Assembly: GCA_047602885.1 (NCBI GenBank)
Contig: JBLKOQ010000001.1
Location: forward strand, 10,016 to 74,015
DNA from: Candidatus Woesearchaeota archaeon
GTDB lineage: Archaea > Nanobdellota > Nanobdellia > Woesearchaeales > WAPJ01
Reading direction: 5' to 3'
DNA length: 64,000 nucleotides
The translations under genes and the position numbers were made by a program. This document shows, in pieces, positions 3,018 to 63,734 of the stretch. Under the pieces are notes generated by a model that saw nothing but the letters and a program-made list of their open reading frames with translations, ran no database searches and was not told the origin of the DNA. Every line of letters starts with the position of its first letter. Positions within the stretch are counted from its first letter, which is position 1.

Positions 3018-3960
3018 GGTGCAAAACAATATGGAAGGATATGACAAGCAATTCGAACCGATATTCAAGGAGATAAGAAAAGTAGTGGTAGGACAGGACG
3101 AAATGATAGAAGGCCTCCTGATAGGGCTTCTAAGCGACGGTAACGTATTATTGGAAGGATACCCTGGACTCGCAAAGACACTAGCGGTGAAGAGTTTTAG
3201 CGAAGCAATGGACTTGGTTTTTAGCAGGATACAGAATACTCCTGACCTAATGCCAACAGACATTACAGGAACACATATAATACAAGAGTCGGGAGGAAAA
3301 AGACAATTTAAGTTTCAGCCAGGCCCAATATTTGCGAACATATTACTGGCGGACGAAATTAACAGGGCGACGCCAAAGACACAGTCAGCACTGCTAGAAG
3401 CGATGCAGGAAAAACAAGTGACAGTAGCAGGAGAGACATTTGCACTGGACCTTCCCTTCTTCGTACTTGCCACACAAAACCCTATAGAACAGGAAGGCAC
3501 TTATCCTTTGCCCGAAGCCCAGGCAGACAGGTTCCTCCTAAAAATAGTATTAGGATATCCGAGCCCTAAAGAAGAGCTAGAGATAGTATCACGGTTTGCT
3601 GAGGAGAGCAAACTGCCAAAGATAAGAAAAGTGGTGAGCAAGAGCGAAATACAAAAAATGCAGGGACAAGCCGAGAAGTTGCCAGTGTCAGAAGAAATCA
3701 AGAAGAAAGCAGTAAAGCTAGCCGCACTAACAAGGATGAGCCAGCACCTCGCATACGGAGCAAGCCCAAGGGCAAGCATAGCACTAGTCAAGACCAGCAA
3801 GGCAAGAGCTCTTATCAGGGGAAGAAAATATGTGAGTACTGAGGATATTGCCGCTATGGCAAAACCAGTATTAAGACATAGAATAATACTCAACTTCGAG
3901 GCTGAAAGACAAGGGCTAACACCCGACACCATAATAGAAGAGATATTAAAGAGCGTTTAA
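3010..3960 (+). CDS. MoxR-family AAA+ ATPase
   Basis: Walker A GYPGLAKT, Walker B LLADEINR, sensor motifs; 316 aa typical MoxR size; followed by DUF58 gene. Confidence 0.85.
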   Translation: MTEVQNNMEGYDKQFEPIFKEIRKVVVGQDEMIEGLLIGLLSDGNVLLEGYPGLAKTLAVKSFSEAMDLVFSRIQNTPDLMPTDITGTHIIQESGGKRQFKFQPGPIFANILLADEINRATPKTQSALLEAMQEKQVTVAGETFALDLPFFVLATQNPIEQEGTYPLPEAQADRFLLKIVLGYPSPKEELEIVSRFAEESKLPKIRKVVSKSEIQKMQGQAEKLPVSEEIKKKAVKLAALTRMSQHLAYGASPRASIALVKTSKARALIRGRKYVSTEDIAAMAKPVLRHRIILNFEAERQGLTPDTIIEEILKSV

Positions 3961-3961
3961 T

Positions 3962-4813
3962 ATGATAAGCACAGAATTCCTAAAGGACCTCGAAAAATTC
4001 TCTCTAATAGTGAGAAAGAAGATATCCTCAAAATACCAGGGTCAGAGGACGAGCAGAGAGCCAGGAAGGGGTATAACATTAAGAGAGCACAGACAATATA
4101 CTTCCCAGGACGATATTAGGACTATAGACTGGAAGGTATATGCGAGGACAGACGACCTCTTCGTAAGAGTGTATGAGGAGGATAAAGACTTATCGGTACA
4201 CTTGATACTAGATGCAACCAAGAGCATGGACTACGGAAATATGATAAGCAAATATGAGTATGCGAGCATGATAGGAGCAGGATTCTTATACCTTGCCATG
4301 AGGAGCAATGAAAGATACAAATACACAATATTGGGTGATGACATGGAAGTTCATCCAATGAAGAGAGGAAGGCATCATTTCGGAGGATACGTGAATACTA
4401 TCAACAAGAGAAAACCCCAAGGTACAATGCAGCTCTCTGATGCCATAGAAGCATACAGGAAGATACTAAAATCTAAGAGCCTAGTCATAATAATAAGCGA
4501 TTTTTTGGAGGACAATGAAAGGATAGATATGATGCTAAGAAGTCTTAGGAAGCATGATGTCAGGATAATACAAGTATTGGACAACGACGAGATAGTGCTG
4601 CCTTTCGAAGGAGACTACAAGTTCGAAGACCCCGAGTCAGGAACGAGGATGAGAACATTCATAGGACAGGGCCCGAGAGCAGAATACATAAGAAAGCTGG
4701 AAAGCCATAATAATAGCATAATGCAGTCATGCGACACCCTAGGATTCGAATACTACCTTGCTAATACGAGCGATCCCATATTCGAGTCTTTCTTTAACAT
4801 AATAAACTATTAA
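3962..4813 (+). CDS. DUF58 domain protein (MoxR/VWA operon partner)
   Basis: DxRxIDWKVYARTDDLFVR signature of DUF58; 2-nt spacing after MoxR gene. Confidence 0.75.
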   Translation: MISTEFLKDLEKFSLIVRKKISSKYQGQRTSREPGRGITLREHRQYTSQDDIRTIDWKVYARTDDLFVRVYEEDKDLSVHLILDATKSMDYGNMISKYEYASMIGAGFLYLAMRSNERYKYTILGDDMEVHPMKRGRHHFGGYVNTINKRKPQGTMQLSDAIEAYRKILKSKSLVIIISDFLEDNERIDMMLRSLRKHDVRIIQVLDNDEIVLPFEGDYKFEDPESGTRMRTFIGQGPRAEYIRKLESHNNSIMQSCDTLGFEYYLANTSDPIFESFFNIINY

Positions 4814-35421: not shown

Positions 35422-38400
35422 TTGGGCTTGAAACAAGTTGTAGTGCAAGTAACGATAGTAGTAGTTATAATAGCTGCGCTTATATTCACATTCTTTAGTA
35501 TTGGAGAGCCTACAATTACAGGTTATGCTGTATTTGAGAGCAGTGTTAGTAATGTCAGTTATGACGTGGAAAGGGTAGTGTTGCCACAAGAAACTTATAC
35601 TATTCAGTTGGAAGATAATGTTGTTGTAAGAGGAATAGTAATTAATGGTTATTATATTGCAAGCAAAGATTCTAGTATTATTGCAAGGCTTGATGAAGGG
35701 ACTATTAGTCATGAATTGAGGTTGAGAAGCAATGTTATTACTGGCATGGCTATCGGTGCTGGAGAAGTTGAGAGTGGTATGATAGAAGAAGACTTGGCTA
35801 ATAGGACTTTGTTGAGGTATGGTGATGGTCCTTATGATATCGATAATGATGGAATGGTAGGGAGACAAGGAGCAGTAGACTATTATGTTGAAACTAATGC
35901 TTCTTGTGTATTATGGAGTATTGTAGGGGATGATGTTGACCTATTCTGTCAGGGAACAATAGAATGCTGTGACAGTTATCTATTGGAGAGCATGGATGAC
36001 AATCCCAATTATTTAGTGTTGGATAGGCAAAGAGCAGGTGCTGACAGAGGAGAAGTATTGGCCAAAGCTGACGGTTATGATTTTAGTAGAATGTTGCCTT
36101 ATGATTTTACTGGTGCTGAGGAGAGACTGGTAAGATTGGATGATGTTTGTTTGGGAAGTTGTAATGTTAGGATGCAGAGCAGTAGTATAAGGATAGAGAG
36201 CAGTGCTTATTTGCATATAGACAGGATTATAGTATATTATGATGATTTGCCAGACGATGAGATATTTGATACAGAGGATGGCAACATAATAGAAGAAGTA
36301 TTACCAGAAAAAAGAGTCATAAGAGAAGAGATGATAGAATATATAGTGTATGAGTCAGAAGGAGGTATTATTGGAAGAACCGTCTCAGAACTAAAAAGTC
36401 ATTATGGTCTTAGCAGGGCATCTGAACGTTCAGCAAAGATATTTTCAATGGATTATGAGCATATCAGTGAAGAGGAAGAAACAGAGTATACCGAAGGGAT
36501 TAATGCTCATATAATTAGAGTATCATCAGAGCTTCTAAATCTAGTAACAGAAGAAAGCGTAAGAATCATAATATTAAATGAATCAGGAATATACTCAGAA
36601 TACGCCAATAATTTATCAGAGCTAAACGAAATACTACACTCTAAAGAAGTTATAACAGCTAGTATCGACAGACAAATAGAATTGTTAACACAAGATACTC
36701 TTAATGCATCAGGGTTTATATCAGTATATAATGAGTATGAGGTTTCTGGTTCTGGTGTTCGTGTATGTATTGTAGATACGGGTGTATCGGGTCATGTGGT
36801 TGAGAATATATCATATACTGGTGTCAATGTTCTTGATGGTACCGATGACATAATGGATTACCATGGCCATGGTACTCTTGTTTCGTACCCTTTGATTCGT
36901 GCATTACCTGATGCCCATTATGTGATTGTAAAGGCTTTGGATGATACTGGGATAGGATATGAGTCTGATGTTATTTCTGGATTGGATGCGTGTGCTGAAC
37001 ATGATGTTGATGTTGTTTCTCTTTCTATAGGAGCTGGATTGTATGATGGGTACTGTGATACTAACCTTGTATCAGAGCGTGTGAATGAACTTGTGTCTGA
37101 AGGAGTCTTGGTAGTTTCTGCTGCAGGTAATGAGGCTGGTCCTTATTTGAAGGCTCCTTCATGCGCTTCCTCTGCTCTTGCAGTTATTGCTTACACTGAT
37201 GATTCGTTATGGTATCAGTCTTCATACTTGGAAGGTCATGCAGTATTTGCCGCTCCTGGTGTTGTTGAGACTATTGGTCCTGATGGTTCTGTGGTTTTAT
37301 CTTCTGGTACGTCTATGAGTGTTCCTTTTGTTAGTGCAGCTGCTGGTTTATTGGTTGAGTATACTAATGACACGGGACTAGTGTTACGTAACAGACTGGT
37401 TGGCACAGGTGATCTGCTTGGTGATGAGTTCTTGTTTTCTCGTCTGAATGTTTCGAGGGCTTTTTCGGGTGAGATTACGAATGAGTTGTTGTATAATATT
37501 AGCGAGGGCGTTGAGGTAGAGGGGACTGTATATTATCGTGGTACGAGTTTTATTGCAGGAACTATCACCACAGGAAATGGGCATTCGTGTGGTATTCGTG
37601 CTGTTGATGGTCGTGTTTTGTGCTGGGGTAGGAATAACGTGGGTCAAATTGGCGATGGTACAACTGCAGGTCCTCGTACGAATCCTACTTTAACTACTGA
37701 TACTTCTGCATATACTTTTATTTCATCAGGCGAACAACATTCGTGTGGTATTCGTGCTAATGATTCTCGTGTTTTGTGCTGGGGTAGTAACGGGAATGGT
37801 GTGCTTGGTGATGGTACTACTGTTCAGCGTGAAAATCCTACTTTGATTAATGATTCTTCAGCGTATCTTACACTTGGGTTAGGTCAAGGTCATTCGTGTG
37901 GTATTCGTGCTAATGATTCTCGTGTTTTGTGCTGGGGTTGGAATGGGAATGGTCGACTTGGTGACGGTACGGATGAAGCTCGTTGGAATCCTACATTGAC
38001 TTCTGATACTTCTGCATACAGCGGAATAACTGCAGGTGCCCACTACTCGTGTGGTATTCGTGCTAATGATTCTCGTGTTTTGTGCTGGGGCACTAATAAT
38101 TATGGTCAGCTTGGTGATGGTACAGATGTTGTTCGTTGGAATCCTACATTGACTTCTGATACTTCCGCTTACCTACATGTTTCTGGAGGAGGTTGGCATT
38201 CGTGTGGTATTCGTGCTAGTGATTCTCGTGTTTTGTGCTGGGGTAGGAATAACGTGGGTCAGATTGGCGATGGTACTACCACCACTCCTCGATTGAATCC
38301 CACTTTAACTACTAACACGTCTGCGCATGGTACTGTTTCTGCTGGAAACGATTATTCGTGTGGTATTCGTGTCAATGATTCTCGTGTTTTGTGCTGGGGT

Positions 38401-41400
38401 GCTAATGATTATGGTCGGCTTGGTGATGGTACTACTACAGGTCCTCGTACAAATCCCACTTTGACTGCAGACTCTTCTGCATATGTAGCCGTTTCAGCGG
38501 GGGATTGGCACACTTGTGGTATAAGATCTTACGATGGTCGTGTGTTGTGTTGGGGGTATAACGAGTTCGGTCAGATTGGCGATGGTACCACTACGACTCC
38601 ACGTCAAAATCCAACGCTTACAAGCAACATGGCTCCATTCGCCGAAATTCCTTGGGTCTTTACAACATGCGAAGCAACTGGTCGCACTGGTCCTACTCAA
38701 GGTATGTGTGACGATGCATACGAATACTCTTATCTGAACAATAGTGTAACTGTATCTTCAGGCATACAATCATGGACTGTTCCTGAGACGGGATGGTATA
38801 ATGTTACTGCAGTTGGAGCTCAAGGAGGATACGGTGGGAGAACGGGTGTTGGGGGATACGGCGCTCTCATTTCAGGTGCTTTCTACTTCGAAGAGGGAGA
38901 GACAATCAATGTTCTCGTTGGTCAGAAAGGTGGAGATAACTCGTTTCGACCGGCAGGTGGTGGTGGAAGTGCAGTGTGGAAGGATACTGGAACCGAACTC
39001 CTCATCGTCGCTGGAGGTGGAGGAGCGTATGCAGTTGGAACAACGACCACCTACCAGGACCGAGCACACGCGAGCAACACAACAAGTGGGAAGGATGGAT
39101 TTGGTGCCACGGCTCAGAGCGTGGGTGGAACCGGAGGTCTTGGAGGTGCCGGAACAGGTAACCGAGCCTCTGGTGGTGGAGGATGGTTTACTGATGGTGG
39201 ACAGGGCACGACGGCTGACAGTCGTGGCCGATCCCTCTCAGGAGGGGGTCTTGGAGGTGGTGGTGCTGTAGCTGACGGTGGATTTGGTGGTGGCGGAGCG
39301 ACCGATAGCACGACGACATGGGGTGCTGCTTCTGGTGGTGGTGGGTACTCTGGTGGTGGGGGTGGGTATTCTAACACAAACGATGCTGAAGGAGCTGGGG
39401 GCGGTGGAGGATCATACAATTCTGGGTTGTTCCAGTATAACGTCGGAGGAGAGAACGCTGATCATGGCTTGGTCATTATCGAGCCATACGGTGATGTCTC
39501 ATTACTCACCGTGGGAGTTACTCCTTCTCCCGAAGCGAACGCTACCGATGATCTTCTTGGATATTGTACGAGTGATGTCATCGATGGATTCGACCGGATC
39601 GACTATGAGTGGAGACGTGACGGCATAGTCGAGTACATGGGAACGTACTTTAGAGCAGATACGATCACAGCGCATGAAGCTCACACTTGTGGTATTCGTG
39701 CTAATGATTCTCGTGTGTTATGTTGGGGACGCGCGGGTAGTGGTGAGATTGGGAATGGAAGCAAGCTACCACAAGTGCTTAATCCAACACTCACCTCTGA
39801 TACTGATCCTTACCTTCAAGTGAGCGTCGGATTCACTCATTCGTGTGGTATCCGCTATGACGGAAGAGTGCTCTGCTGGGGAAACAACGCTGAAGGGCAG
39901 TTGGGAACAAACGATACGACTGAACGACTCGTTCCTACTTTGATTGCGGATGATGCTGCCTACCATTCCCTCAGCGCAGGATACCGGATGAATTGTGCGA
40001 TACGTGCTAATGATTCTCGTGTGTTATGTTGGGGTGACAATGTATTCTCTCAACTCGGCAGTGGAGGTGGATCGGTGAGCGTTCCGAGGCTCATCAATGA
40101 TACCGCTTCCTACCTGATGGTTTCCACTTACAAGTACCACGCGTGTGGTATTCGTGCTAATGATTCTCGTGTGTTGTGCTGGGGGATGAACTGGTACGGT
40201 CAGGGTGGTAATGGAACAACTGACGAGTTCGTGTCATCCGAGACTCCGACCCTCACGACCGATAGTTCACCATATGTAATGGTAACAACAGGTGCCTCTC
40301 ATACGTGTGGTATTCGTGCTAGTGATTCTCGCGTGTTGTGCTGGGGTCGTAATAATAATGGGCAGCTTGGAATCGGTTCGAGCGGTACAAATGTCGGTAA
40401 CCCCACAACGACTTCAGATTCATCTGCATATCACTACATAGATGCTGGTTGGCAGTTCTCATGTGGCATCAGATCGTCTGATAATAGAGGTCTTTGTTGG
40501 GGGGATAATGGTGAGGATAAACTTGGTATCGGAACGACCGGTAATCGTGAAAACCCTACACTTATATCTGCTTCGTTTGCGATATCGTTGATTACTGCTG
40601 GTGAACGCCATGGGTGTGTGGTTCGCTCTTCGAATGGGCGTGTGTACTGCTGGGGACAAACTGCTGAAGGACGTACAGGAGATGGGGTAGGTATTGGTAC
40701 TGAGCACACACCGACGCTCACAACAGACACTTCCTCGTATGCGTACTTACCTGCTATTGCCTCTGGCGTGCAGTATAACCTCTCAACACTTGACTCAACG
40801 ATAACGAATGGTGGAGACTCATGGACGTTCTCATGCCGGATTACAGACGGTCGAACGACCTATCCATACGAGGAGAGTGCTACGATAACGATTGCAAACA
40901 TTATTCCGATTTATTCAAAGTTTGATGGTTCAACAACGAACTTTTCTGATGCTAGTGTTGTTCCTGACCTTTCAAGCGTGAGCAATCCGATTCTTGAGAT
41001 ATCCACGTTCGGACGCATCACATGGAAAGGTATGGTAAACGTTCCTAGTTCAGATTATGATTCTCATGTGCATATTGGTTATCGGTACATTTTTGTTAAT
41101 AGTAGCGCGTTGCATTCATCTCATGATTCGGGTTCGAATTTGAGCTTTTATGATACGGGCTTCGTGCATGCTCCTGTCATCCTCAAAGATAGTTCTGTGT
41201 GTGAACAACCCTTGTGTAACATGACTGGATTTGTTGATGGTTACGTGAATTACTCAGTGGCTGGTTTCTCAAACTACACGCTTGATTCTAATAGTCGATT
41301 GGAGATCTGGGATGGTACTGATCCTCAAGGAGGAAATAATTCGTATGAGGTTGGTGAATCGGTGCCTTTCTATGCAAATTATTCGAATCTGACTTCTGGT

Positions 41401-44400
41401 GAACCGATTTCGGGTTCGGGGAACGATTGTGAGATCCAATTTGATACTGGGAGCGGGTATGGGAGTTTTATAGAGATGGAATTTAACGCAACAAGTAACT
41501 TGTACGAGTACAACACCACATTTGGATCTGCAGGGACGTTCAGTTATAACGTGAGTTGCACTAGCACCCAAGGATATGAGAACCTGAGCGTGACTAATGA
41601 GTTCACATACAATCCTGCAAACTGTTTTGACAATTCGACGAGTCCTATACCAATTTGTACATGTACTGATCTTAGCAGGATGTGGGAGAACCTTACAGCA
41701 AACTATGAATTGCAGAATAATATAGACTGTAGTGATACTATTAATTGGAATGATGATGAGGGATGGCTGCCTGTAGGGACAACAGGTACGGGTTTTAGTG
41801 GTACGCTGGATGGGCAGGGATATAATATTACTGACTTGTTCATTGCTCGAAATAATGTTGGTTATCAAGGTTTGTTTGGTCAGTTAACTACAGGAGGAAG
41901 CATTACTGATTTAGGTTTGGTGAATGCGAATATCACCATAAAAGACACACTCAGTATAGTGACTCCATATATTGGGATTCTTGTAGGATATATCGATGGA
42001 GGCAGTGTCTCTGGATCTTATGTCACAAATAGTATTCTCTATAGTGATTTTCCCTCTACTGGTGGTCTTATAGGAGAAATGAGTGGTGGTAGTGTTGTCT
42101 CATCTTCTTTTGTTAGTGGTTCTAGTGTTTCTTCTTCTACTAGTAATGTTGGTGGTCTTATAGGAAGAATGAGTGGTGGTAGTGTGTCATCTTCTTATAC
42201 GGTGGATTCTAGTGTTTCTTCTACTGGTAGTAGTGTTGGTGGTCTTGTAGGATATATGCTGAGTGGTAGTGTTGTTTCATCGTCTTATACTATTGGTTCT
42301 AATGTTTCTTCTACTAGTACTCGGGTTGGTGGTCTCGTAGGAAGAATGTGGAGTGGTTCTAGTATTGTTGATTCTTACAGTACTAGTAATGTTTATGCTC
42401 TTGCAGGAGAAAACTTACAATATCATGGTGGACTAGTAGGACAAAACTATAGGGGAGTGATAAACAATTCTTATAGTACAGGAATAGTTAATAGTACACA
42501 TGATGATAGTGGTGGTTTTGTAGGAAGCGTAGATACAGGAGCTGCGACTTATGGTATGTATGGTAACTTCTGGGATAACCAGACAAGCGGTCGTAGTACT
42601 AGTGCTGGTGATAATGTAACAGGACTTACTACAGCGCAGATGTATAATATCAGTCAGTTCTTAGCGGCAGATTGGAATATTAGTGAGATTAGCGGTTATA
42701 ATAATGAGACTTGGTTTATTGATGATGGTAATGATTATCCTAGATTATGGTTTGAGTTTGATCTTGCTTTATTGGATATTGAGTCTGTAGGCATTATTCC
42801 AAGTCCTTTTGCTTTGGATGATGAGAATCTCGTAGGGTATTGTAGTGCTACTGGTAGTGAGAATTTTACGAGGTTGGATTATTTGTGGTATAAGGATGAT
42901 GTAGTGGAGTATGGGGGTGCTTATTTCAAGGAAGGAAGTATTAGTGCTGGTGGGGAGTTTTCTTGTGGTGTTCGTGCTAATGATTCTCGTTTGTTGTGTT
43001 GGGGTGCTAATTTTGTTGGTAAGTTGGGTATTGGTAATACTACTCATATGTATAGTCCTGTTTTGGTTGATTCTTCTGATGCTTTTTTGAGTGTTTCTGT
43101 GGGTGTTTCTCATTCTTGTGGTGTTCGTGCTAATGATTCTCGTGTTTTGTGTTGGGGGCTAAATAGTGAGGGGCAGTTGGGTATTGGTAATACTACTGAT
43201 ATGTTTAGTCCTGTTTTGGTTGATTCTTCTGATGCTTTTTTGAGTGTTTCTTTAGGTAGTTTTCATTCTTGTGGTGTTCGTGCTAATGATTCTCGTGTTT
43301 TGTGCTGGGGTGGTAATATTTATGGTCAGTTGGGTGTTGGTAATACTACTGATATGTTTAGTCCTGTTTTGGTTGATTCTTCTGATGCTTTTTTGAGTGT
43401 TTCTTTAGGTAGTTTTCATTCTTGTGGTGTTCGTGCTAATGATTCTCGTGTTTTGTGTTGGGGTGGTAATTGGGTTGGTCAGTTGGGTGTTGGTAGCGCT
43501 GTTTATGATTCGTGTTTTGATGGTTATGAATATTACGATTGTAGTTTGAATCCTGTTTTGGTTGATTCTTCTGATGCTTTTTTGAGTGTTATGGTGGGTG
43601 TTTCTCATTCTTGTGGTGTTAGGGCGAGTGATTCTCGTTTGTTGTGTTGGGGTGCTAATGCTAATGGTCAGTTGGGTGTTGGTAATACTACTGATATGTT
43701 TAGTCCTGTTTTGGTTGATTCTTCTGATGCTTTTTTGAGTGTTGGTCTTGGTTTTGGACATTCTTGTGGTGTTAGGGCGAGTGATTCTCGTGTTTTGTGT
43801 TGGGGACGTAATTTTGGAGGTCAGTTGGGTGTTGGTAATACTACTAGTCCTATTATGGTTCCTGTTTTGGTTGATTCTTCTGATGCTTTTTTGAGTGTTG
43901 ATGGTGGTTTTGGTGGTGGTTTTGGTGAGCAGCATACGTGTGGTGTTCGTGCTGTTGATGGTCGTGTTTTGTGTTGGGGTGATGGTTCTTTTGGTGCTTT
44001 GGGAACAGGCAATACTAGTTCTCAGTTGAGTCCGACTCTTACTATTGATTCGAGCAGTTATCTTAGGGGGCTTTCTCCGCAGACGACTTATAATGTTTCT
44101 TTGATAGGGAGTGGGTTGACTAGTTTGGGGGAGGAGTGGAAGCTTAGTTGTCGCGCTGTAAATGTTACTAGTGCGGGGGATTTTGTTAATTCTACTGTTA
44201 CTACGATTGATGAGGGTGAAGAGGGTTTGGATTGTGGTGTTATCGATGAGCCTGGAGAGTATATTATGAATGGCGACCTTGCGGCTACCGGAACTTGTAT
44301 TACTATTAATGTTAGTGATGTTTCATTAGATTGTCAGGGTCATACGATCAACTACTCTACAAACGATGACGAGGGCTACGGTATCCTGATATGGAGCCAG

Positions 44401-47400
44401 AGCGGGACGGTCGAAAACGTGAGTATCGCGAACTGTAACATCATCAAAGAGAGTCCTGGAGGGAGCTCAGGGAGTAGGCGCCCAGCTATCCTCGGATACG
44501 GCTACTCAGGTACTCCTTCAGGAGGTTTCACAAAATCAGGTGATGAGCATACTGTTGAGCAAGTAAATATATCGAACGTTACTATCACGACCGAGGGAGA
44601 TTATGCTCGAGGCATATTTGTCTTAAGTGGTCATACTTGGAGTGTCGAAGATGTCTCTATCACAACGTATGGAGATGATGCCCGAGGAATCTACAGCGAG
44701 AACTCTGATCATTGGAGTCTCAGGAGAGTTGATATCACGACCTTTGGAACTGTAGGGATAGGACTGTATACGATCGATGCAAACCACTACTATCTCAAGG
44801 ACATCGATATCACTGCTGCGAGCGCAGGCATGTGGATCCGCACGGGAAGTTCGAACTGGCGGGCAGAGAACATTTCGATAAATGCTACGCTTCAAGGTAT
44901 CGCGACATCGGACGGAGGTATGGCTCACATGAGTTTTTACAACTCTACGATCCACTCATCAGGAAGCCGGGGATTAGATACCAATCAAGGTACAGATAAC
45001 ATCAGCTTCTACGATTCTATTATCACCGCTCCATCAAGTGACGATGTATACATGCGTCTTGGTGATGCGAGTCGGCGTGTTACGTTCGTCAACGTGACTT
45101 TCAACCCTTCCAGTGTCACGTTCCATGACTCGACCTCAGGATTCCTCGACGTTGGATGGTACGTCGACTTTCTCGTAAACGATACTCTAAGTTATCGAGT
45201 TGAGAATGCTAATATTAGTTGGCAGGATTCTGGTGTTATGAGCAGTTTGAACCCTAACAGTACTGGTTGGAAATTAACTGATAGTGGTGGATTGTCTCTA
45301 AGAAATATATTGTATGAGTACTCGCAGAACCAAACTGCTAGGTACTATCATACTAACTATAGCTTCGACATAAGTAGCCCATCATACGCTTCCCTTGTTG
45401 GAGCGTCTAGGAACTTCACTACAAATACACAATTGGATTTTACTATAGAGCCATTGTCGTTGGAGTGTGGTGTTATTAGCGAGCCTGGCTCTTATGTTAT
45501 GACTACTAATCTTACTGCTACAGGCACGTGTTTCACTATTAATGTTAGTGATGTAATACTGGATTGTCAGGATTATACTATTAATTATTCGACTGCTGAT
45601 GAGGGTTATGGTATTTTGATTTGGAGTCAGTCTTCTAATGTGGATAATGTTACGATACAGAACTGTGTTGTTGTGCAGGGTTCTGGTGAGGGTGATGTGA
45701 ATAGTGCGCGTCCTGGTATTTTGGGTTGGGGTGTTAATAATGGTCCGAGTGGTGGTTTGTCGAGTGTTAGTGGTATTTTTTATGAGGTTACTAATGTTTT
45801 GGTTGTGGATTCTAGTATAGTAACATTGGGTGATCGTTCGGATGCTATTAGGGGTGCGGTTTCGTATGACTGGGATGTTGTGGGTGTGAATGTTTCTACT
45901 GCTGGTCAGCTTGCTTCGGGTGTTTTTGGTACTTTTACGGGGGGTTGGTTGTTGTCTGGTGTTGATTCTTTTACTACCGGTGATAATTCTAGGGGTTTTG
46001 CTAGTTGGGATTCTGTTGATTGGGAGATTGTGGATTCTCGTTCTGAGGTTACTACTTTTTATTCTTATCCTATTCGTGCTGAGGAGGGTTCTCATGGATG
46101 GGTTCTGTCCAATGTTTCTCTTATCTCTGATGGTTTTGAGTCTGATGGGCTTCATGTGATTGATTCGGATAATTGGATGGTTGAGGGTCTTTTTGTTTCA
46201 TCATCGGGCACTCAGGCTGATGCTTTTTATTTAGAGGATTCTGATGGTTGGATGGTTTATGATTCTGATTTGTCTAGTGGGTCTGCGTTTGATGTTGTTC
46301 TTAATCTTAGTGATTCTTCGTATCGTGTTGGTTTTGTGAATACGAGTTTTGATCATTCTAGCGTGTCTCTTCTTACTCCGGGCTGGCTTGATAGGGGTTG
46401 GTGGGTGGATGCGTATGTGAATGATAGTCTTGGCAGTCCTGTAGAGGATGCTAATGTCTCTTGGAATGATGCTGGTATTATTAGTGGGAATCCTAGTAGT
46501 AGTGGTTGGAATGTTACTGATGATAGTGGACTTAGTGTTAGGAATGTCTTGTTTGAATATTCTGAGAATCAAACTGCGAGATATTATAATACTAATTATA
46601 CTATTAATGTTAGTCATGAGGATTATGATGATCTTATAGGAGAGTCAAGGAATTTTACGGGTAATACGCAGTTGAACTTTACTTTTTTGGGTGAGTCTTT
46701 AGAGTGCGGTGTTATTAGTGAGCCTGGCGAGTATGTTATGACTTCTGACTTGTCTGCTGCTGGTACTTGTTTTACTATTAATGTTTCTGATGTTAGTTTG
46801 GATTGTGGGGGTCATACGATTAACTATAGTACTGGTGAGGAGGGTTATGGTATTTTGATTTGGAGCCAGGGTGGGTTGGTTGAGAATGTGAATGTTAGTA
46901 ATTGTAATATTGTTAAGGATAGTGAGGAAGGTAATAGTTCGAGTCTTAGGCCTGCCTTACTTGTTTATGGTCGTAGTGCTGTTCCTAGTGGTTCTATTAG
47001 TGGTATTGCGGGTACTGCTCATTATGTAGATAATGTGTCTATTAATAATGTTAATGCTAGTAGTAAGGGAAATTATAGTAGTGGGATTTTTATAGTGCGA
47101 GGATGGTATTCTTCTATTAGTAATGTTATGGTTGATACTGATGGTAATTGGAGTTTTGGGATATGGGGCGATTACTCTTCTTATTGGAATATTTATAATA
47201 CTAGTATTTTTTCGTTAGGGCTGTTTAATGTTGGTCTGTATGGGGTGGATTCTAATTTTTGGGTTTTAGATAGTTTAAATGTAGATGTTGAGTTCAATGA
47301 TGGTCATGGTATTATTGGTTTTCGGTCAAATTCTTGGATTCTTTATAATGTTACTGTTATTGCTGACGGTTCTACAGTTAGGGGAATATCTCTATGGGAT

Positions 47401-48882
47401 CTTAATAACTGGACTGTTATAGACTCTTTTATTGATAGTACTTTTTATGATATTAATATGGAGTTAGATCATAGTACTCGTCAAGCTTTTTTTATTAATA
47501 CAAGCTTTAATAAGAGTAGTGTGTATTTTACTAATGCTAATGCTGGTTGGCTTAATCGTGGTTGGTGGGTTGATTCGTATGTTAATGATACTATAGGGAA
47601 TCCAATTAGTGGTGCTAATGTGAGTTGGGTGGATAATGGTAGTCTTGCAAGCAATCCTTCTGCTAGTGGTTATAGTTTGACTTTGGTTGATGGGACGGTG
47701 AGGAATGCCATATTCGAATATTCTCAGAACCAGACTCATACGTTTGAGCATAATAATTATACTTTTAATGCGAGCAAGGAAGGATTCTTACATAGTGATA
47801 TTGTTCAAAATATAACTGATAATGCCTTCATTTACTTTACATTAGAAACCGATGACATTGATCCTCCGACATGGTCTGATCCTTGGGATAACAGTACTGA
47901 TACTAGCCCTAGGATTAATGAGAATATAAGGATGAACTTAACACTAAACGATGATGTTGACTTGTTCAGCTATACTTTTAGTTGGAATGGTACTGGTTCA
48001 TGGACTAATGATAGTATACAGTTAATATCAGGCACAGAGCATATTTTAAGCGTTATTAAGCAAGTAGGATTGCCTAGAGACAATACTATAGGATGGAGAG
48101 TATACTTTAATGACAGTGCAGAAAAGACAAACATCTCTGATATATTCACATTCACTGTAAAGAACACTCCTCCTGATGTTCCTATACTAAATTATCCTCT
48201 AAACGACAGTGATATTTACAATAGAACGCCATTATTCAACTGGACGGGATTCGATGCAGACTCTGATGAATTAACATACAACCTCACGATATACTGCATA
48301 GGAGGATGCAGTGCTGACAACAGGCATTATCAAGGAATAACAACTAACGAATTCCAGCTTGAAGAAGAACTCCAGTTCCTATACGATGACGGATACTCAT
48401 ACTTGTGGAGCGTTAATGCATGCGACCAATATGAATGCTCAGAATACTCCCAAAACAACACGTTCACTCTCTCAAGCCTCTTATCAGTCAGATTCACACA
48501 AAACGATTCGGACTTCGGCATGATGCAGCTCGGACAAACCAATAGTACTGAGGATAACAGCCCAAACCCTCTTGTACTGGTAAACGAAGGAAACGTAAAA
48601 GTAAATATTAGCTTCTACGCCCAAACCCCGTTATTTGAAAGAGCTGCACTGCCAAGCCCATTCTTTGAGGCAAGAATAAGGCCATTAATAGGAAATTATG
48701 GCATAGACACTAATACGAGCTGGTTTGACCTGGACGATTCAGAAAACCCTGCTCACATGCTAAGAAAACTAAATTATACAACAGACAATAATGCCACTAT
48801 AGACTTAAGAGTAACAGTTCCTATAGACGAGCCTCCAGCAGAGAGGAGCAGTACTATTACAGCAATGGTGGTGATGTCATGA
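35422..48882 (+). CDS. giant secreted multidomain surface protein (4486 aa): signal anchor, S8 subtilase, RCC1 block 1, ALK-like glycine-rich domain, RCC1 block 2, GLUG repeats, RCC1 block 3, three tandem beta-helix modules, fn3-like C-terminus
   Basis: Uninterrupted 13.46-kb ORF; apparent TTG start (in-frame stop just upstream). Catalytic triad motifs IVDTG / HGHGT / GTSMSVPFVSAAAG. More than 20 copies of an HSCG(I/V)RANDSRVLCWG...G.LG.G motif. Three about 410-aa modules each starting L(D/E)CGVI(D/S)EPG.Y(I/V)M. Confidence 0.85.
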   Translation: MGLKQVVVQVTIVVVIIAALIFTFFSIGEPTITGYAVFESSVSNVSYDVERVVLPQETYTIQLEDNVVVRGIVINGYYIASKDSSIIARLDEGTISHELRLRSNVITGMAIGAGEVESGMIEEDLANRTLLRYGDGPYDIDNDGMVGRQGAVDYYVETNASCVLWSIVGDDVDLFCQGTIECCDSYLLESMDDNPNYLVLDRQRAGADRGEVLAKADGYDFSRMLPYDFTGAEERLVRLDDVCLGSCNVRMQSSSIRIESSAYLHIDRIIVYYDDLPDDEIFDTEDGNIIEEVLPEKRVIREEMIEYIVYESEGGIIGRTVSELKSHYGLSRASERSAKIFSMDYEHISEEEETEYTEGINAHIIRVSSELLNLVTEESVRIIILNESGIYSEYANNLSELNEILHSKEVITASIDRQIELLTQDTLNASGFISVYNEYEVSGSGVRVCIVDTGVSGHVVENISYTGVNVLDGTDDIMDYHGHGTLVSYPLIRALPDAHYVIVKALDDTGIGYESDVISGLDACAEHDVDVVSLSIGAGLYDGYCDTNLVSERVNELVSEGVLVVSAAGNEAGPYLKAPSCASSALAVIAYTDDSLWYQSSYLEGHAVFAAPGVVETIGPDGSVVLSSGTSMSVPFVSAAAGLLVEYTNDTGLVLRNRLVGTGDLLGDEFLFSRLNVSRAFSGEITNELLYNISEGVEVEGTVYYRGTSFIAGTITTGNGHSCGIRAVDGRVLCWGRNNVGQIGDGTTAGPRTNPTLTTDTSAYTFISSGEQHSCGIRANDSRVLCWGSNGNGVLGDGTTVQRENPTLINDSSAYLTLGLGQGHSCGIRANDSRVLCWGWNGNGRLGDGTDEARWNPTLTSDTSAYSGITAGAHYSCGIRANDSRVLCWGTNNYGQLGDGTDVVRWNPTLTSDTSAYLHVSGGGWHSCGIRASDSRVLCWGRNNVGQIGDGTTTTPRLNPTLTTNTSAHGTVSAGNDYSCGIRVNDSRVLCWGANDYGRLGDGTTTGPRTNPTLTADSSAYVAVSAGDWHTCGIRSYDGRVLCWGYNEFGQIGDGTTTTPRQNPTLTSNMAPFAEIPWVFTTCEATGRTGPTQGMCDDAYEYSYLNNSVTVSSGIQSWTVPETGWYNVTAVGAQGGYGGRTGVGGYGALISGAFYFEEGETINVLVGQKGGDNSFRPAGGGGSAVWKDTGTELLIVAGGGGAYAVGTTTTYQDRAHASNTTSGKDGFGATAQSVGGTGGLGGAGTGNRASGGGGWFTDGGQGTTADSRGRSLSGGGLGGGGAVADGGFGGGGATDSTTTWGAASGGGGYSGGGGGYSNTNDAEGAGGGGGSYNSGLFQYNVGGENADHGLVIIEPYGDVSLLTVGVTPSPEANATDDLLGYCTSDVIDGFDRIDYEWRRDGIVEYMGTYFRADTITAHEAHTCGIRANDSRVLCWGRAGSGEIGNGSKLPQVLNPTLTSDTDPYLQVSVGFTHSCGIRYDGRVLCWGNNAEGQLGTNDTTERLVPTLIADDAAYHSLSAGYRMNCAIRANDSRVLCWGDNVFSQLGSGGGSVSVPRLINDTASYLMVSTYKYHACGIRANDSRVLCWGMNWYGQGGNGTTDEFVSSETPTLTTDSSPYVMVTTGASHTCGIRASDSRVLCWGRNNNGQLGIGSSGTNVGNPTTTSDSSAYHYIDAGWQFSCGIRSSDNRGLCWGDNGEDKLGIGTTGNRENPTLISASFAISLITAGERHGCVVRSSNGRVYCWGQTAEGRTGDGVGIGTEHTPTLTTDTSSYAYLPAIASGVQYNLSTLDSTITNGGDSWTFSCRITDGRTTYPYEESATITIANIIPIYSKFDGSTTNFSDASVVPDLSSVSNPILEISTFGRITWKGMVNVPSSDYDSHVHIGYRYIFVNSSALHSSHDSGSNLSFYDTGFVHAPVILKDSSVCEQPLCNMTGFVDGYVNYSVAGFSNYTLDSNSRLEIWDGTDPQGGNNSYEVGESVPFYANYSNLTSGEPISGSGNDCEIQFDTGSGYGSFIEMEFNATSNLYEYNTTFGSAGTFSYNVSCTSTQGYENLSVTNEFTYNPANCFDNSTSPIPICTCTDLSRMWENLTANYELQNNIDCSDTINWNDDEGWLPVGTTGTGFSGTLDGQGYNITDLFIARNNVGYQGLFGQLTTGGSITDLGLVNANITIKDTLSIVTPYIGILVGYIDGGSVSGSYVTNSILYSDFPSTGGLIGEMSGGSVVSSSFVSGSSVSSSTSNVGGLIGRMSGGSVSSSYTVDSSVSSTGSSVGGLVGYMLSGSVVSSSYTIGSNVSSTSTRVGGLVGRMWSGSSIVDSYSTSNVYALAGENLQYHGGLVGQNYRGVINNSYSTGIVNSTHDDSGGFVGSVDTGAATYGMYGNFWDNQTSGRSTSAGDNVTGLTTAQMYNISQFLAADWNISEISGYNNETWFIDDGNDYPRLWFEFDLALLDIESVGIIPSPFALDDENLVGYCSATGSENFTRLDYLWYKDDVVEYGGAYFKEGSISAGGEFSCGVRANDSRLLCWGANFVGKLGIGNTTHMYSPVLVDSSDAFLSVSVGVSHSCGVRANDSRVLCWGLNSEGQLGIGNTTDMFSPVLVDSSDAFLSVSLGSFHSCGVRANDSRVLCWGGNIYGQLGVGNTTDMFSPVLVDSSDAFLSVSLGSFHSCGVRANDSRVLCWGGNWVGQLGVGSAVYDSCFDGYEYYDCSLNPVLVDSSDAFLSVMVGVSHSCGVRASDSRLLCWGANANGQLGVGNTTDMFSPVLVDSSDAFLSVGLGFGHSCGVRASDSRVLCWGRNFGGQLGVGNTTSPIMVPVLVDSSDAFLSVDGGFGGGFGEQHTCGVRAVDGRVLCWGDGSFGALGTGNTSSQLSPTLTIDSSSYLRGLSPQTTYNVSLIGSGLTSLGEEWKLSCRAVNVTSAGDFVNSTVTTIDEGEEGLDCGVIDEPGEYIMNGDLAATGTCITINVSDVSLDCQGHTINYSTNDDEGYGILIWSQSGTVENVSIANCNIIKESPGGSSGSRRPAILGYGYSGTPSGGFTKSGDEHTVEQVNISNVTITTEGDYARGIFVLSGHTWSVEDVSITTYGDDARGIYSENSDHWSLRRVDITTFGTVGIGLYTIDANHYYLKDIDITAASAGMWIRTGSSNWRAENISINATLQGIATSDGGMAHMSFYNSTIHSSGSRGLDTNQGTDNISFYDSIITAPSSDDVYMRLGDASRRVTFVNVTFNPSSVTFHDSTSGFLDVGWYVDFLVNDTLSYRVENANISWQDSGVMSSLNPNSTGWKLTDSGGLSLRNILYEYSQNQTARYYHTNYSFDISSPSYASLVGASRNFTTNTQLDFTIEPLSLECGVISEPGSYVMTTNLTATGTCFTINVSDVILDCQDYTINYSTADEGYGILIWSQSSNVDNVTIQNCVVVQGSGEGDVNSARPGILGWGVNNGPSGGLSSVSGIFYEVTNVLVVDSSIVTLGDRSDAIRGAVSYDWDVVGVNVSTAGQLASGVFGTFTGGWLLSGVDSFTTGDNSRGFASWDSVDWEIVDSRSEVTTFYSYPIRAEEGSHGWVLSNVSLISDGFESDGLHVIDSDNWMVEGLFVSSSGTQADAFYLEDSDGWMVYDSDLSSGSAFDVVLNLSDSSYRVGFVNTSFDHSSVSLLTPGWLDRGWWVDAYVNDSLGSPVEDANVSWNDAGIISGNPSSSGWNVTDDSGLSVRNVLFEYSENQTARYYNTNYTINVSHEDYDDLIGESRNFTGNTQLNFTFLGESLECGVISEPGEYVMTSDLSAAGTCFTINVSDVSLDCGGHTINYSTGEEGYGILIWSQGGLVENVNVSNCNIVKDSEEGNSSSLRPALLVYGRSAVPSGSISGIAGTAHYVDNVSINNVNASSKGNYSSGIFIVRGWYSSISNVMVDTDGNWSFGIWGDYSSYWNIYNTSIFSLGLFNVGLYGVDSNFWVLDSLNVDVEFNDGHGIIGFRSNSWILYNVTVIADGSTVRGISLWDLNNWTVIDSFIDSTFYDINMELDHSTRQAFFINTSFNKSSVYFTNANAGWLNRGWWVDSYVNDTIGNPISGANVSWVDNGSLASNPSASGYSLTLVDGTVRNAIFEYSQNQTHTFEHNNYTFNASKEGFLHSDIVQNITDNAFIYFTLETDDIDPPTWSDPWDNSTDTSPRINENIRMNLTLNDDVDLFSYTFSWNGTGSWTNDSIQLISGTEHILSVIKQVGLPRDNTIGWRVYFNDSAEKTNISDIFTFTVKNTPPDVPILNYPLNDSDIYNRTPLFNWTGFDADSDELTYNLTIYCIGGCSADNRHYQGITTNEFQLEEELQFLYDDGYSYLWSVNACDQYECSEYSQNNTFTLSSLLSVRFTQNDSDFGMMQLGQTNSTEDNSPNPLVLVNEGNVKVNISFYAQTPLFERAALPSPFFEARIRPLIGNYGIDTNTSWFDLDDSENPAHMLRKLNYTTDNNATIDLRVTVPIDEPPAERSSTITAMVVMS
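36700..37450 (+). other. subtilisin-like S8 peptidase domain within the giant protein
   Basis: Asp near 36775 (CIVDTG), His at 36868-36870 (HGHGT), Ser at 37312-37314 (GTSMS). Confidence 0.7.
37560..38620 (+). repeat. RCC1 block 1: seven tandem about 150-156-bp repeats (CATTCGTGTGGTATTCGTGCTAATGATTCTCGTGTTTTGTGCTGGGGT core), CGT/GGT/GTT codon regime
   Basis: Core recurs at 37582, 37738, 37891, 38041, 38206, 38352, 38509. Confidence 0.75.
38740..39500 (+). other. glycine-rich domain resembling the ALK/LTK-type glycine-rich domain (Pfam Gly_rich-like): VLVGQKGG ... LLIVAGGGGAY plus poly-Gly tracts
   Basis: Motifs INVLVGQKGGD, GGGGSAVW, LLIVAGGGGAYA, multiple GGGG(Y/S); GC-richer codon regime. 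Confidence 0.45.
39530..40740 (+). other. RCC1 block 2 (about 8 repeats) preceded by a linker homologous to the one before block 3; GC-richer codon regime
   Basis: Repeats HTCGIRANDSRVLCWG ...; linker VTPSPEANATDDLLGYCTSD ... parallels IIPSPFALDDENLVGYCSAT ... at 42790. Confidence 0.6.
41790..42750 (+). other. GLUG-motif repeat region (GGL(I/V)G(R/E/Y)M(S/L/W)GGSV ... x6)
   Basis: Repeated VGGLIGRMSGGSVSSS-type units about 25 aa long; opening GTLDGQGYNITDLF is typical of GLUG domains. Confidence 0.5.
42950..44010 (+). repeat. RCC1 block 3: seven tandem about 153-180-bp repeats; units at 43216-43371 and 43372-43527 are nearly identical
   Basis: CATTCTTGTGGTGTTCGTGC core at 42958, 43111, 43264, 43426, 43606, 43759, 43934; GATTCTTCTGATGCTTTTTTGAGTGTT recurs 6 times. 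Confidence 0.75.
44200..47830 (+). other. three tandem about 1.2-kb homologous modules (A 44200-45430, B 45430-46690, C 46690-47830) with right-handed beta-helix (pectate-lyase-like) character
   Basis: Each begins L(D/E)CGVI(D/S)EPG(E/S)Y(I/V)M ... TINVSDV(S/I)LDC(Q/G)(G/D)(H/Y)TINYST ... EGYGILIWSQ and ends ... ARYY(H/N)TNY. Module A is in the GC-richer regime, B and C in the GT-rich regime. Confidence 0.55.
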
Positions 48883-62129: not shown

Positions 62130-63734
62130 ATGCACCCAATATTACTAAAGAGCATAGCTGTAAAGCATTATTTTAGGAGTATAATCAGCGATGCGATTGC
62201 AGAAGAATGTATGAATAGAGAAGTAGCAGTAAAATATTCTTATGGGTTCGGCAAGAGGCCTGAAATGATAGAGACAGGCGCAGAAATAAGGCAATTGGCA
62301 CTCCAAGGATCTACAAGCTATCATATAAGCGAAGAACTATGGGAAAACCCGTTAGACATTAAGACTGGGATGACAGAAAAAGAATACAACAATATAAGGA
62401 TAGGATGGGACCTCATAATAGACATAGACGCTCCCGACTGGAGGTTCTGCAAGGTAGTATGCGCTACTATGATAAGAGTACTAAAAGACCTGGGAATAAA
62501 AACTATAAGAGTGAAGTTTTCGGGCAACAAAGGATTCCACATAGGAGTGCCATGGGAATCATTTCCTAAAGAAGCATCATACAACAATAATACTGCAGAA
62601 CTATCATCATTATTCCCTCAACTTCCTAGAGAGATAGCAAGAATCATGATAGCAGAAGCTGACAAAAACCATATAAGAATAGACGACCAAGGAAAAATAA
62701 TATTTTTGGAAGAACACTATTTTGAAAGAGAAGAAATAAAAGAGATACTCGGAATAGAAGACAACGAACTCCTAGTAAAAAAGTGCGAGTCATGCAACAA
62801 TATCTATGAAGAGGACAAGACTAGAGTATACGAGTGCCCGAACTGCATGGCAAGAAGAGTATCAGAAGAAGAATACCTAAAATGCACAAACTGCAATATA
62901 GACATGAACATAATAACAAAAGTTCCGAGATGCGAATGCGGCAACACCACTTTTTATACAGCACTAAATGTAGAGAGAATACTCCATTTAGACACGCTCC
63001 TAATAAGTCCCAGGCACTTATATAGAAGTCCGTACAGCATCCACGAGAAATCAGGACTATGCAGCATACCTATAGACAAGGATACAGTACTGGGATTTGA
63101 GAAGCATTATGCAAGACCAGAATACATAGCAAAAATAATACCTTTCATTAATAGTGAGATAAGAGAGGGTGCTAACAGCAAAGAAGGAGTAAGACTCATA
63201 AGAATGGCACTGGACAATATACAAGAGCCTCTAAAAGAAACATCCTACGAAGAAATAGATGTTCCTAAAGAAGCCCTAGGAGAAGAACATTATCCTCCGT
63301 GCATAAAGAATGCATTGCAGGGAATAAAAGACGGCAAGAAGAGAACAGTACTGATAATGTCAAGCTATCTTAGGAGCATAGGATGGGATAAGAGCAGCGC
63401 AGAAAAGATAATATACTCGTGGAACAATAAGAACGAAGAGCCTCTAAGAGAAGTGTACATTAAAGGACAATTAAGACATGCATTCCAAGGAAAACCTATG
63501 CTGCCGCCGAACTGCGACCACAAGGACTATATGAAAGACATAGGACTATGCACTCCCGACGAGTTCTGCATGACCATAAGAAATCCCGCCCAATACTCAA
63601 AGAAGAAGCACGAGATGAAAAAGACTATAAGAAAGGGAAGGAAAAAGAAGGATGCCAACAAAGAAAAAAAGAAAGAAAAGAAAGAGGAAAAGACTCATAA
63701 TAAAGAGGAAAACAATAATGAGAATAACACCTGA
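62130..63734 (+). CDS. archaeo-eukaryotic DNA primase with fused domains: PriS catalytic domain with Zn-ribbon insert plus C-terminal 4-Cys PriL-CTD-like domain
   Basis: AEP motif I LIIDIDAPD, motif II FSGNKGFHIGVPW, motif III DTLLISPRHLYRSPYSIHEKSG; CxxC...CxxC ... CxC zinc ribbon; C-terminal Cys in PPCIKNAL, PNCDHKDY, LCTPDEFC; K/E-rich tail. Confidence 0.65.
   Translation: MHPILLKSIAVKHYFRSIISDAIAEECMNREVAVKYSYGFGKRPEMIETGAEIRQLALQGSTSYHISEELWENPLDIKTGMTEKEYNNIRIGWDLIIDIDAPDWRFCKVVCATMIRVLKDLGIKTIRVKFSGNKGFHIGVPWESFPKEASYNNNTAELSSLFPQLPREIARIMIAEADKNHIRIDDQGKIIFLEEHYFEREEIKEILGIEDNELLVKKCESCNNIYEEDKTRVYECPNCMARRVSEEEYLKCTNCNIDMNIITKVPRCECGNTTFYTALNVERILHLDTLLISPRHLYRSPYSIHEKSGLCSIPIDKDTVLGFEKHYARPEYIAKIIPFINSEIREGANSKEGVRLIRMALDNIQEPLKETSYEEIDVPKEALGEEHYPPCIKNALQGIKDGKKRTVLIMSSYLRSIGWDKSSAEKIIYSWNNKNEEPLREVYIKGQLRHAFQGKPMLPPNCDHKDYMKDIGLCTPDEFCMTIRNPAQYSKKKHEMKKTIRKGRKKKDANKEKKKEKKEEKTHNKEENNNENNT

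Follow-up and report, generated by a model that had tools for sequence, protein, structure and literature searches.

The 64-kb window analyzed here (the whole stretch of DNA under study, taken from contig JBLKOQ010000001.1 of a Candidatus Woesearchaeota archaeon) contains a 13.5-kb open reading frame (ORF) whose product is, as predicted from its sequence, a secreted cell-surface protein of this DPANN archaeon. The giant gene is probably a recombinational mosaic, shuffled by cassette-like exchange among paralogous giant genes. The ends of the ORF share the codon usage of the chromosome around it, whereas the 11-kb interior is split into tracts with dialects of their own. Homologous recombination or gene conversion would have exchanged most of one beta-helix module, module A (nucleotides [nt] about 44332-45141, probably to 45435), between this gene and another giant member of its family, and we propose this exchange as the reason why the dialect of module A differs from that of modules B and C. 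The junctions would lie in conserved blocks, namely, the TINVSDV block at the 5' end and, at the 3' end, the beginning of the following module. The other tracts may have arisen likewise, from module cassettes shuffled among paralogous, possibly related, giant genes of different compositional histories. This reading draws on the paralogy of the modules, the tract map, the non-host codon usage of the interior, a patch 94% identical to a second giant protein, and the recurrence of such a mosaic in a syntenic locus.

From the N terminus, the giant protein consists of a hydrophobic anchor, an S8 protease, RCC1 propeller 1, a Gly-rich domain, RCC1 propeller 2, GLUG repeats, RCC1 propeller 3, three beta-helix modules (A, B, and C), and a C-terminal domain. 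Coordinates are collected in Table 1.

Paralogous modules in different codon dialects

An earlier note on this DNA had described modules A, B, and C as paralogs, and the three indeed align end to end at 43-47% protein identity (full-length pairs A-B, 46.6%; A-C, 46.3%; and B-C, 42.9%). The ARYYxTNY ending that it had given to all three is found in modules A and B but not in module C, which ends HTFEHNNY. In an AlphaFold2 model, module A is nearly all beta, with a predicted local distance difference test score above 70 over residues 1 to 270 (71 overall), and the best Foldseek matches of the model are AlgE4, phage tailspikes, and NosD (probability, 1.0; template modeling score, up to 0.51). The model rests on three sequences and is of moderate confidence; at that strength, it suggests that the modules fold as a right-handed parallel beta-helix of the pectate-lyase-like, NosD, or tailspike kind. 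Pfam gave no match to modules A, B, and C at E <= 0.01, the Beta_helix and NosD models included, and a word-indexed protein search with module B returned one partial match, a protein of a relative (P0001).

The dialects of the modules differ as claimed before. Third positions are A18 C27 G18 T36 in module A, A5 C4 G24 T68 in module B, and A9 C6 G18 T67 in module C. The difference holds in the alignment columns where all three modules have the same residue (chi2 = 57.9, p = 1.2e-10). In pairwise tests, A is clearly distinguishable from B (p = 5e-9) and from C (p = 6e-7), and B and C give p = 0.66. At identical residues, the codons of module A are mixed or C-ending, and those of B and C are nearly only T- or G-ending. 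Synonymous divergence (dS) is saturated for A versus B and C, with a nonsynonymous divergence (dN) of about 0.57-0.62. The same note had paired two linker-plus-RCC1 modules in the same manner, and this pairing also stands. The modules at amino acids (aa) 1355-1790 and 2440-2900 are homologous along with their linkers, at 46% identity in 431 aligned residues, and their third positions at identical residues are A34 C40 G35 T80 and A5 C6 G35 T143, respectively (p = 6.4e-14).

The dialect does not follow the phylogeny of the modules. In their C-terminal half, the sister pairs are A with B and C with the last module of P0001, yet the dialect is common to B and C and not to A. This mismatch, together with the sharp tract borders and the C content of module A at third positions (C3; A3, G3, and T3 are used accordingly), excludes duplication followed by common drift, in agreement with the earlier view that the modules did not arise by simple in situ duplication.

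The codon regimes belong to DNA tracts

Penalized-likelihood segmentation of third positions divided the ORF into eight tracts (Table 1). The regimes proposed in the earlier note exist, although there are more than the two that it distinguished. Two of the tracts have an extreme dialect with T or G at third positions, referred to below as K3. When the same segmentation was applied to the giant genes of relatives, four of them (L040, L049, L027, and L023) gave a single segment each and a fifth gave three mild segments.

Table 1. Features of the giant gene, with positions in the window
Feature	Position (nt)	Strand	Residues (aa)	Remarks
Giant surface-protein ORF (predicted)	35422-48882	+	4486 codons (4486 aa)	13.5 kb; ORF list and translation
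Tract 1, host-like	35422-36723	+	1-434	Arg CGN:AGR 1:24; Ile mostly ATA
Tract 2, T3-rich	36724-38442	+	435-1007	T3 62%; Arg CGN:AGR 27:5; S8 domain and most of RCC1 propeller 1
Tract 3, nearly unbiased	38443-42027	+	1008-2202	A20 C20 G17 T42; effective number of codons (ENC) 54; Gly-rich domain and "GC-regime" linker-plus-RCC1 module (aa 1355-1790, nt 39484-40791)
Tract 4	42028-42810	+	2203-2463	T3 67%; A3 19%; includes GLUG-type repeats of 87-90 nt
Tract 5, extreme K3	42811-44271	+	2464-2950	A4 C2 G19 T76; ENC 26; RCC1 propeller 3, linker, first codons of module A
Tract 6, "GC-richer"	44272-45435	+	2951-3338	A19 C29 G15 T37; ENC 54; Ile mostly ATC
Tract 7, second extreme K3	45436-47769	+	3339-4116	A6 C4 G18 T71; ENC 33
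Tract 8, host-dialect C-terminal domain	47770-48879	+	4117-4486	Arg CGN:AGR 0:13
RCC1 propeller 1	37489-38646	+		seven blades
Beta-helix module A	44227-45459	+	2936-3346	alignment; AlphaFold model
Beta-helix module B	45460-46698	+	3347-3759	K3 dialect; alignment
Beta-helix module C	46699-47871	+	3760-4150	K3 dialect; positional ortholog of the last module in relatives (P0001/L043)
20-nt block ACTATTAATGTTAGTGATGT	44302-44321	+		repeated at 45535-45554 in module B
Putative exchange patch	44332-45141	+	2971-3240	versus P0131 aa 170-439; 253/270 = 94% identical, no gaps

The 42 other ORFs of the window served as the host set. Host genes encode Arg by AGR in 85-95% of cases (CGN, 5-15%) and use ATA for Ile. 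The 11-kb interior of the giant ORF has an Arg CGN:AGR ratio of 96:36, against 1:24 and 0:13 at its ends. Host ENC values range over 38-50; the extreme tracts lie below this range (26-33), and tracts 3 and 6 lie above it (54). Relative synonymous codon usage (RSCU) of tract 1 correlates at 0.74 with that of host minus-strand genes and at 0.50 with that of plus-strand genes; tract 8 correlates with plus-strand genes at r = 0.87 and the K3 tracts at about 0. Outside the giant gene, plus-strand genes have A3 of about 43% and T3 of about 18%, and minus-strand genes have T3 of about 40% and A3 of about 25%, so that the plus strand is A-rich whichever way a gene points. The T-rich tracts of the giant gene oppose this local strand bias.

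Module A has a C3 of 29-32%, compared with 2-4% in the K3 tracts and about 15-20% in host genes. Since its C3 lies above both, module A is not intermediate between K3 and host, and the idea that it is a K3 module undergoing amelioration was ruled out.

Assigning regimes module by module, as done before, captures the difference in dialect, but the tract borders do not match the 5' border of module A: codon regimes belong to DNA tracts, not to modules. The switch of module A to the "GC regime" comes 15-40 codons after the module starts, at nt 44272-44347 and within the conserved TINVSDVSLDCQGHT/INYST motif; aa 2976 is the estimated change point, and its 2-lnL support interval spans aa 2939-2977. 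In the codon alignment, module A has NNT codons before this switch and is still in the GT regime. After it, module A reads ATC AAC TAC ... GGC TAC GGT ATC CTG ATA where modules B and C read ATT AAT TAT ... GGT TAT GGT ATT TTG ATT. The 3' switch back, at nt 45436-45454, is the A/B border. The 20-nt block ACTATTAATGTTAGTGATGT, which sits at the 5' dialect junction, is the sole exact repeat of at least 18 nt between A and another module.

High identity to a second giant protein over one patch

An exhaustive HMMER search of 1.84 billion proteins with module A identified a second giant protein of 2964 aa, P0131 (MFT4309545.1), encoded in a Woesearchaeota metagenome-assembled genome (MAG) and cut at its N terminus by a contig end. 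No outside match exceeded 43% in this search. The protein of the window is itself recorded at NCBI as MFT4308908.1 (P0130) from a Candidatus Woesearchaeota MAG, and with accessions 637 apart, the two proteins very probably come from the same MAG. Within the ungapped patch (Table 1), third positions are A19 C32 G19 T30. Outside it, identity to P0131 is 44-63% over 120 residues on the upstream side; on the downstream side, it is about 50% over 60 residues and 13-30% farther out (13-53% over the wider downstream range). The rise in identity at aa 2971 coincides with the dialect switch at nt 44332-44347. As in a mosaic gene, a segment is thus far more similar than its flanks, and the compositional change point matches the break in similarity. 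A second patch, aa 4146-4257 (nt 47857-48192), is 89% identical to P0131 aa 1334-1445. At the protein level, the 94% patch directly supports an exchange between giant genes, whether of a cassette or by gene conversion. Of the import and the cassette exchange suggested earlier, exchange is supported for module A by this patch at the dialect switch and is plausible for the rest; import is not shown.

Several observations weigh against the mosaic reading. The patch ends at aa about 3240, and the non-K3 dialect runs on to aa about 3338-3345, so that one patch does not account for the whole of tract 6. Exchange is visible at the protein level alone, with neither direction nor age. The placement of P0131 in the same genome follows from accession proximity and not from a record, and no exchange partner was found for the tract of RCC1 propeller 2 or for any other tract. 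Recombination explains how the dialects came to be juxtaposed and not why K3 exists. K3 is present both in the window and in the syntenic locus described below (L055), and propeller 3 is about as diverged between the two as the flanks are, which suggests long-term maintenance and not a recent arrival. Finally, contigs of the same organism that are 100% identical to the window (L050, L051, and L052; Logan, SRR32456880 and SRR32456869) end at nt 35588 and start again at nt 48072; because these per-sample short-read contigs break there, the interior of the ORF lacks independent confirmation. The contig start at nt 48072 falls inside the 89% patch common to the second giant gene.

These breaks fit an assembly chimera, in which reads of two paralogs or of co-occurring strains or species were joined at shared k-mers. 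Propeller 3 has exact repeats longer than 55 nt, and modules A and B have a 20-mer in common at the junction; a related organism with the same gene family also occurs in the same run series. We nevertheless consider a chimera very unlikely. The patch is 94% and not 100% identical to P0131, which points to a distinct copy and not to reads used twice, and the frame is open for 13.5 kb through seven junctions. The independent L055 assembly is a mosaic of this kind too and has no internal stops, and the K3 dialect exists at the read level regardless.

Homologous recombination within the gene would be in keeping with the RCC1 propellers. The CWG blade motif occurs 21 times, in three sets of seven that correspond to the three propellers, and the blades of propeller 3 are up to 91% identical in DNA. 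A 42-nt blade core (TGT GGT ATT CGT GCT AAT GAT TCT CGT GTN TTG TGY TGG GG) is near-invariant in 17 of the 21 blades and spans all three propellers (regions 37580-38579, 39680-40370, and 42956-44003); the invariant core is found in four blades of propeller 2, which is otherwise coded differently, in the "GC regime." Synonymous conservation of the core is much above that outside it (Fisher p = 1e-3 to 1e-4). This would be evidence of active intragenic homogenization or conversion in the giant gene; the pattern suggests either that conversion is confined to the core or that the core is constrained as a nucleotide sequence. A word-indexed search with propeller 3 returned generic RCC1 proteins alone, at 48% identity or less.

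Relatives of the giant gene and the question of import

GC-rich Woesearchaeota relatives (L040 and L049, GC 61%; L053, GC 54%) have giant homologs with many tandem modules that are compositionally homogeneous and host-like. The C-terminal domain (nt 47773-48879) is part of the giant ORF in the window and in L053 (L053:1-1158), where the last module is fused to it as in the window (53% identity) and the downstream gene is also common to both; since the fusion is also present in L053, it is old. In L053, an in-frame stop lies 12 codons from the contig start. In L001/L043 (L001:683-2170) and L040 (L040:10001-11614), a gene of its own, downstream and overlapping, encodes the domain together with a signal peptide; in L049, the match also lies in a gene apart from the giant ORF, which is partial there and located upstream.

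A comparable mosaic occurs on L055, a 138-kb contig from an independent Joint Genome Institute (JGI) metagenome (GC 40%; host usage, AGR/ATA) that is syntenic with the window (TraB and M17 peptidase). Its family ORFs, of 949, 4679, and 3361 codons, are mosaics with host-like ends, tracts with T3 of 71-83% and A3 of 0-7%, intermediate and C3-rich tracts, and no internal stops, and their module order differs from that in the window. DNA identity between L055 and the window is 68-71% in the flanking genes, 73-77% in propeller 3, and 74% in the C-terminal domain. The three ORFs are consecutive (L055:7135-34040; 8989 codons in total), with at least 17 beta-helix module matches, and several stretches of at least 40 residues are almost exactly repeated between the second and third ORF.

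Import, the other source of foreign dialects suggested in the earlier note, would have brought the interior tracts in by horizontal transfer from other organisms or mobile elements. Candidate sources would be, for the C3-rich tracts, GC-richer Woesearchaeota sharing the habitat and, for the K3 tracts, a T-rich element of the L038 type. Codon usage of the interior, with its CGN:AGR ratio and its ENC values outside the host range, is atypical in the manner of horizontally acquired DNA; Arg CGN in the interior and Ile ATC in module A resemble the usage of relatives with GC of 54-61% (L001/L043, L040, and L053). A GC-55% relative with the same gene family (L043 to L048) occurs in the same sequencing-run series (SRR324568xx). 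L038 (metagenome contig Ga0164313_10007524; 9.5 kb) encodes a NosD/beta-helix surface protein with the same N-terminal motif; this distant homolog matches Pfam NosD and Beta_helix. It is one of three large plus-strand genes (L038:2564-9498), the other two being for membrane proteins, that have T3 of 56-69% and an RSCU correlating at r = 0.92-0.93 with that of the K3 tracts. The intergenic plus strand of L038 is also T-rich (39% T and 26% A).

Even so, import from other genomes appears unlikely. Modules A, B, and C are closer to one another than to any module of L040, L049, L043, and L055, so that no closer relative in another lineage was found among the homologs, and no outside donor emerged. 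The sole high-identity partner, P0131, is apparently in the same MAG. A species-genome collection scanned with the module alignment contained no relative, and viral-contig scans with the modules and with an L038 protein gave no match. Pfam and PHROGs detected no mobile-element, viral, or plasmid marker on L038. RSCU of module A correlates at 0.4-0.54 only with that of the GC-rich relatives. Different sources alone would also not explain the existence of K3, given that K3 is found in the syntenic L055 as well.

Nature of the extreme T/G dialect

In the K3 tracts, third positions are T where allowed and otherwise G: 90-96% of NNY codons end in T, 74-93% of NNR codons end in G, and four-fold sites are T in 70-85% of cases. 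The bias is uniform over codon boxes (NNY boxes, 92-100% T; NNR boxes, 74-93% G). It also reaches codon positions 1 and 2, where changes between propeller 3 and propeller 2 are directed towards G/T at ratios of 94:43 and 82:32 (p about 1e-5 to 1e-6); for module B versus module A, the ratio at codon position 1 is 92:45. The summed content of A, P, T, H, Q, and R residues is 16-19% in K3 versus 26-33% elsewhere. GC skew is +0.5 and AT skew is -0.55, and such a pattern, GC skew up and AT skew down, is expected from the loss of C on one strand (PMC3269012). The K3 tracts look as if their sense strand had lost C and A in a directional manner, and we infer a mutational origin.

The dialect might have arisen in place, by in situ duplication followed by a tract-specific force without exchange, either a local mutational bias (sense-strand C>T and A>G, plus G>T) or nucleotide-level selection for a U-rich, A/C-poor wobble position. 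The uniformity over NNY and NNR boxes, the extension to codon positions 1 and 2 and to amino acid content, and the skews, which are as for C>T (PMC3269012), all speak for such a force, as does the recurrence of K3 in the syntenic L055 at a divergence like that of the flanks. Conversion of C3 to T3 in silico in GC-rich relatives raises their RSCU correlation with K3 from -0.2 to +0.85. We still regard a force in place as an unlikely account of the gene. It does not account for the 94% patch that starts exactly at the dialect switch, and although the ORF is a single one, its N- and C-terminal tracts are host-like, with an old C-terminal fusion (L053, 53%). Four-fold sites in K3 are 76% T and 15% G, more T than C>T alone predicts (45% and 41%), and the bias opposes that of the local strand, on which plus-strand genes are A3-rich. 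Polarized recent substitutions among the near-identical, young blades of propeller 3 comprised few singletons, and the test was underpowered.

From 5' to 3', the fraction of NNY codons ending in T is 0.77 in the N-terminal region, 0.79 in the S8 domain with propeller 1, 0.59 in the middle, 0.86 in the GLUG repeats, 0.96 in propeller 3, 0.54 in module A, 0.95 in B, 0.90 in C, and 0.37 in the C-terminal region; host plus-strand genes have 0.42. A gene-wide, transcription-associated strand asymmetry, which would enrich sense-strand C>T throughout the transcription unit, does not fit, because K3 opposes the local strand bias and is absent from the ORF ends. The idea that K3 is the host minus-strand dialect after an inversion was also rejected, as Arg and Ile choices differ and A3 is far too low. 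A diversity-generating retroelement was ruled out, there being no reverse transcriptase domain in the scanned ORFs of the window and no Rfam match, with no dedicated search for template and variable repeats.

Translational selection, by which T- and G-ending codons would serve tRNA matching or tune the translation speed of beta-rich domains, is the least probable of the explanations considered. The codon bias is very strong (ENC 26-33), and the surface protein is probably abundant. In archaeal decoding, G34 anticodons favor NNC over NNT, and the 92-100% preference for NNT in K3 is the opposite. Furthermore, all dialects encode the same kinds of domain (RCC1 propellers 1 to 3, and A versus B and C), and the bias also alters amino acids.

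The sense strand of the K3 tracts (42811-44271 and 45436-47769) contains 17 T runs of at least five, ten of them of at least six. Runs of T5 or more resemble archaeal intrinsic terminators, and premature termination inside the ORF is possible. Tests for oligo-T avoidance and for off-frame-stop selection in the K3 tracts gave no deviation from synonymous-codon shuffles. Minus-strand antisense ORFs of 114-257 aa lie within the K3 tracts (42769-43113, 43405-43935, 45382-46155, and 46231-46617); these are most likely a by-product, as near-zero A at sense third positions removes antisense stops.

The mosaic reading does not extend to the origin of the extreme T/G dialect. Tentatively, K3 might be a maintained property of exchangeable cassettes of giant archaeal adhesin genes, and not a foreign relic. 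A candidate cause of such maintenance is a strand-specific, deamination-like mutation coupled to cassette recombination or expression. Another candidate is selection for A/C-free wobble positions, e.g., removing TATA-like motifs on both strands or favoring U-rich mRNA.

Domain assignments and chromosomal context

Pfam matched Peptidase_S8 at aa 443-651 of the giant protein, and also RCC1/WD40_RLD and Glug. Assignment to the RCC1 family is backed by 533 bits for PF25390 (cutoff, 150) and 397 bits over 17 stretches for PF00415. The genes flanking the giant ORF are ordinary chromosomal genes. Among the ORFs of the window, a primase at 62130-63734 is a single 534-aa ORF in which the small and large primase subunit domains are fused; such a fusion has been reported for DPANN archaea and is consistent with the NCBI label Candidatus Woesearchaeota. 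Scans of the window for tRNAs and against Rfam found nothing.

Comparison with known systems and significance

Segmental gene conversion in surface-protein gene families is known from Neisseria pilE/pilS, Borrelia vlsE, and Treponema tprK. As in those systems, a stretch would here have been replaced from a paralog, with junctions in conserved blocks and a mosaic of high and low identity. In contrast, both partners are giant, apparently intact ORFs and not an expression site with silent cassettes, the organism is an archaeon, and the exchanged segment has a different codon dialect; directionality and programmed switching are not part of our claim. The pbp genes of Streptococcus and Neisseria are mosaics from recombination between diverged alleles or species. 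The giant gene is like them, and like foreign DNA detected by composition, in its sharp intragenic shifts in composition and similarity and in its non-host codon usage. It differs in that no outside donor was found, that at least three non-host dialects occur in one ORF, and that one of these is far more extreme than any whole-genome usage among relatives. Literature searches gave no description of such a codon-dialect mosaic.

Deamination of single-stranded DNA produces strand asymmetry on the bacterial leading strand and the H strand of vertebrate mitochondrial DNA (PMC3269012, PMC2031905). K3 resembles it in that one strand is enriched in T and G and depleted of C and A, in the skew pattern, and in the effect on amino acids. 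Unlike that asymmetry, K3 is confined to kilobase tracts in one gene and absent elsewhere in the ORF, opposes the local strand bias, and is much stronger (third-position T, 70-82%; A+C below 8%).

Giant multidomain surface proteins of DPANN archaea are also represented by the SPEARE proteins of Nanohaloarchaeota. The protein of the window is likewise a very large, presumably secreted protein with a protease domain and adhesion-type repeats, from a small-celled and probably host-dependent archaeon; unlike SPEARE as described, its domain set comprises S8, RCC1 propellers, GLUG, and tandem beta-helix modules. Contact with host cells is presumed to be a requirement of DPANN archaea, and their giant surface proteins are the likely organs of contact. 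The locus points to module-scale exchange between giant genes in an archaeon; here, the codon dialects serve as natural markers by which the exchanged tracts can be seen. The locus also presents a nucleotide regime, reproducible in two related genomes, in which A and C are nearly missing from the wobble position, contrary to the local strand bias. Such a regime could be the sign of a mutational process acting on one strand or of a new kind of constraint on very long genes in archaea. If K3 is indeed actively maintained, this would tie cassette shuffling to a private nucleotide regime of DPANN archaea, a connection not described before.

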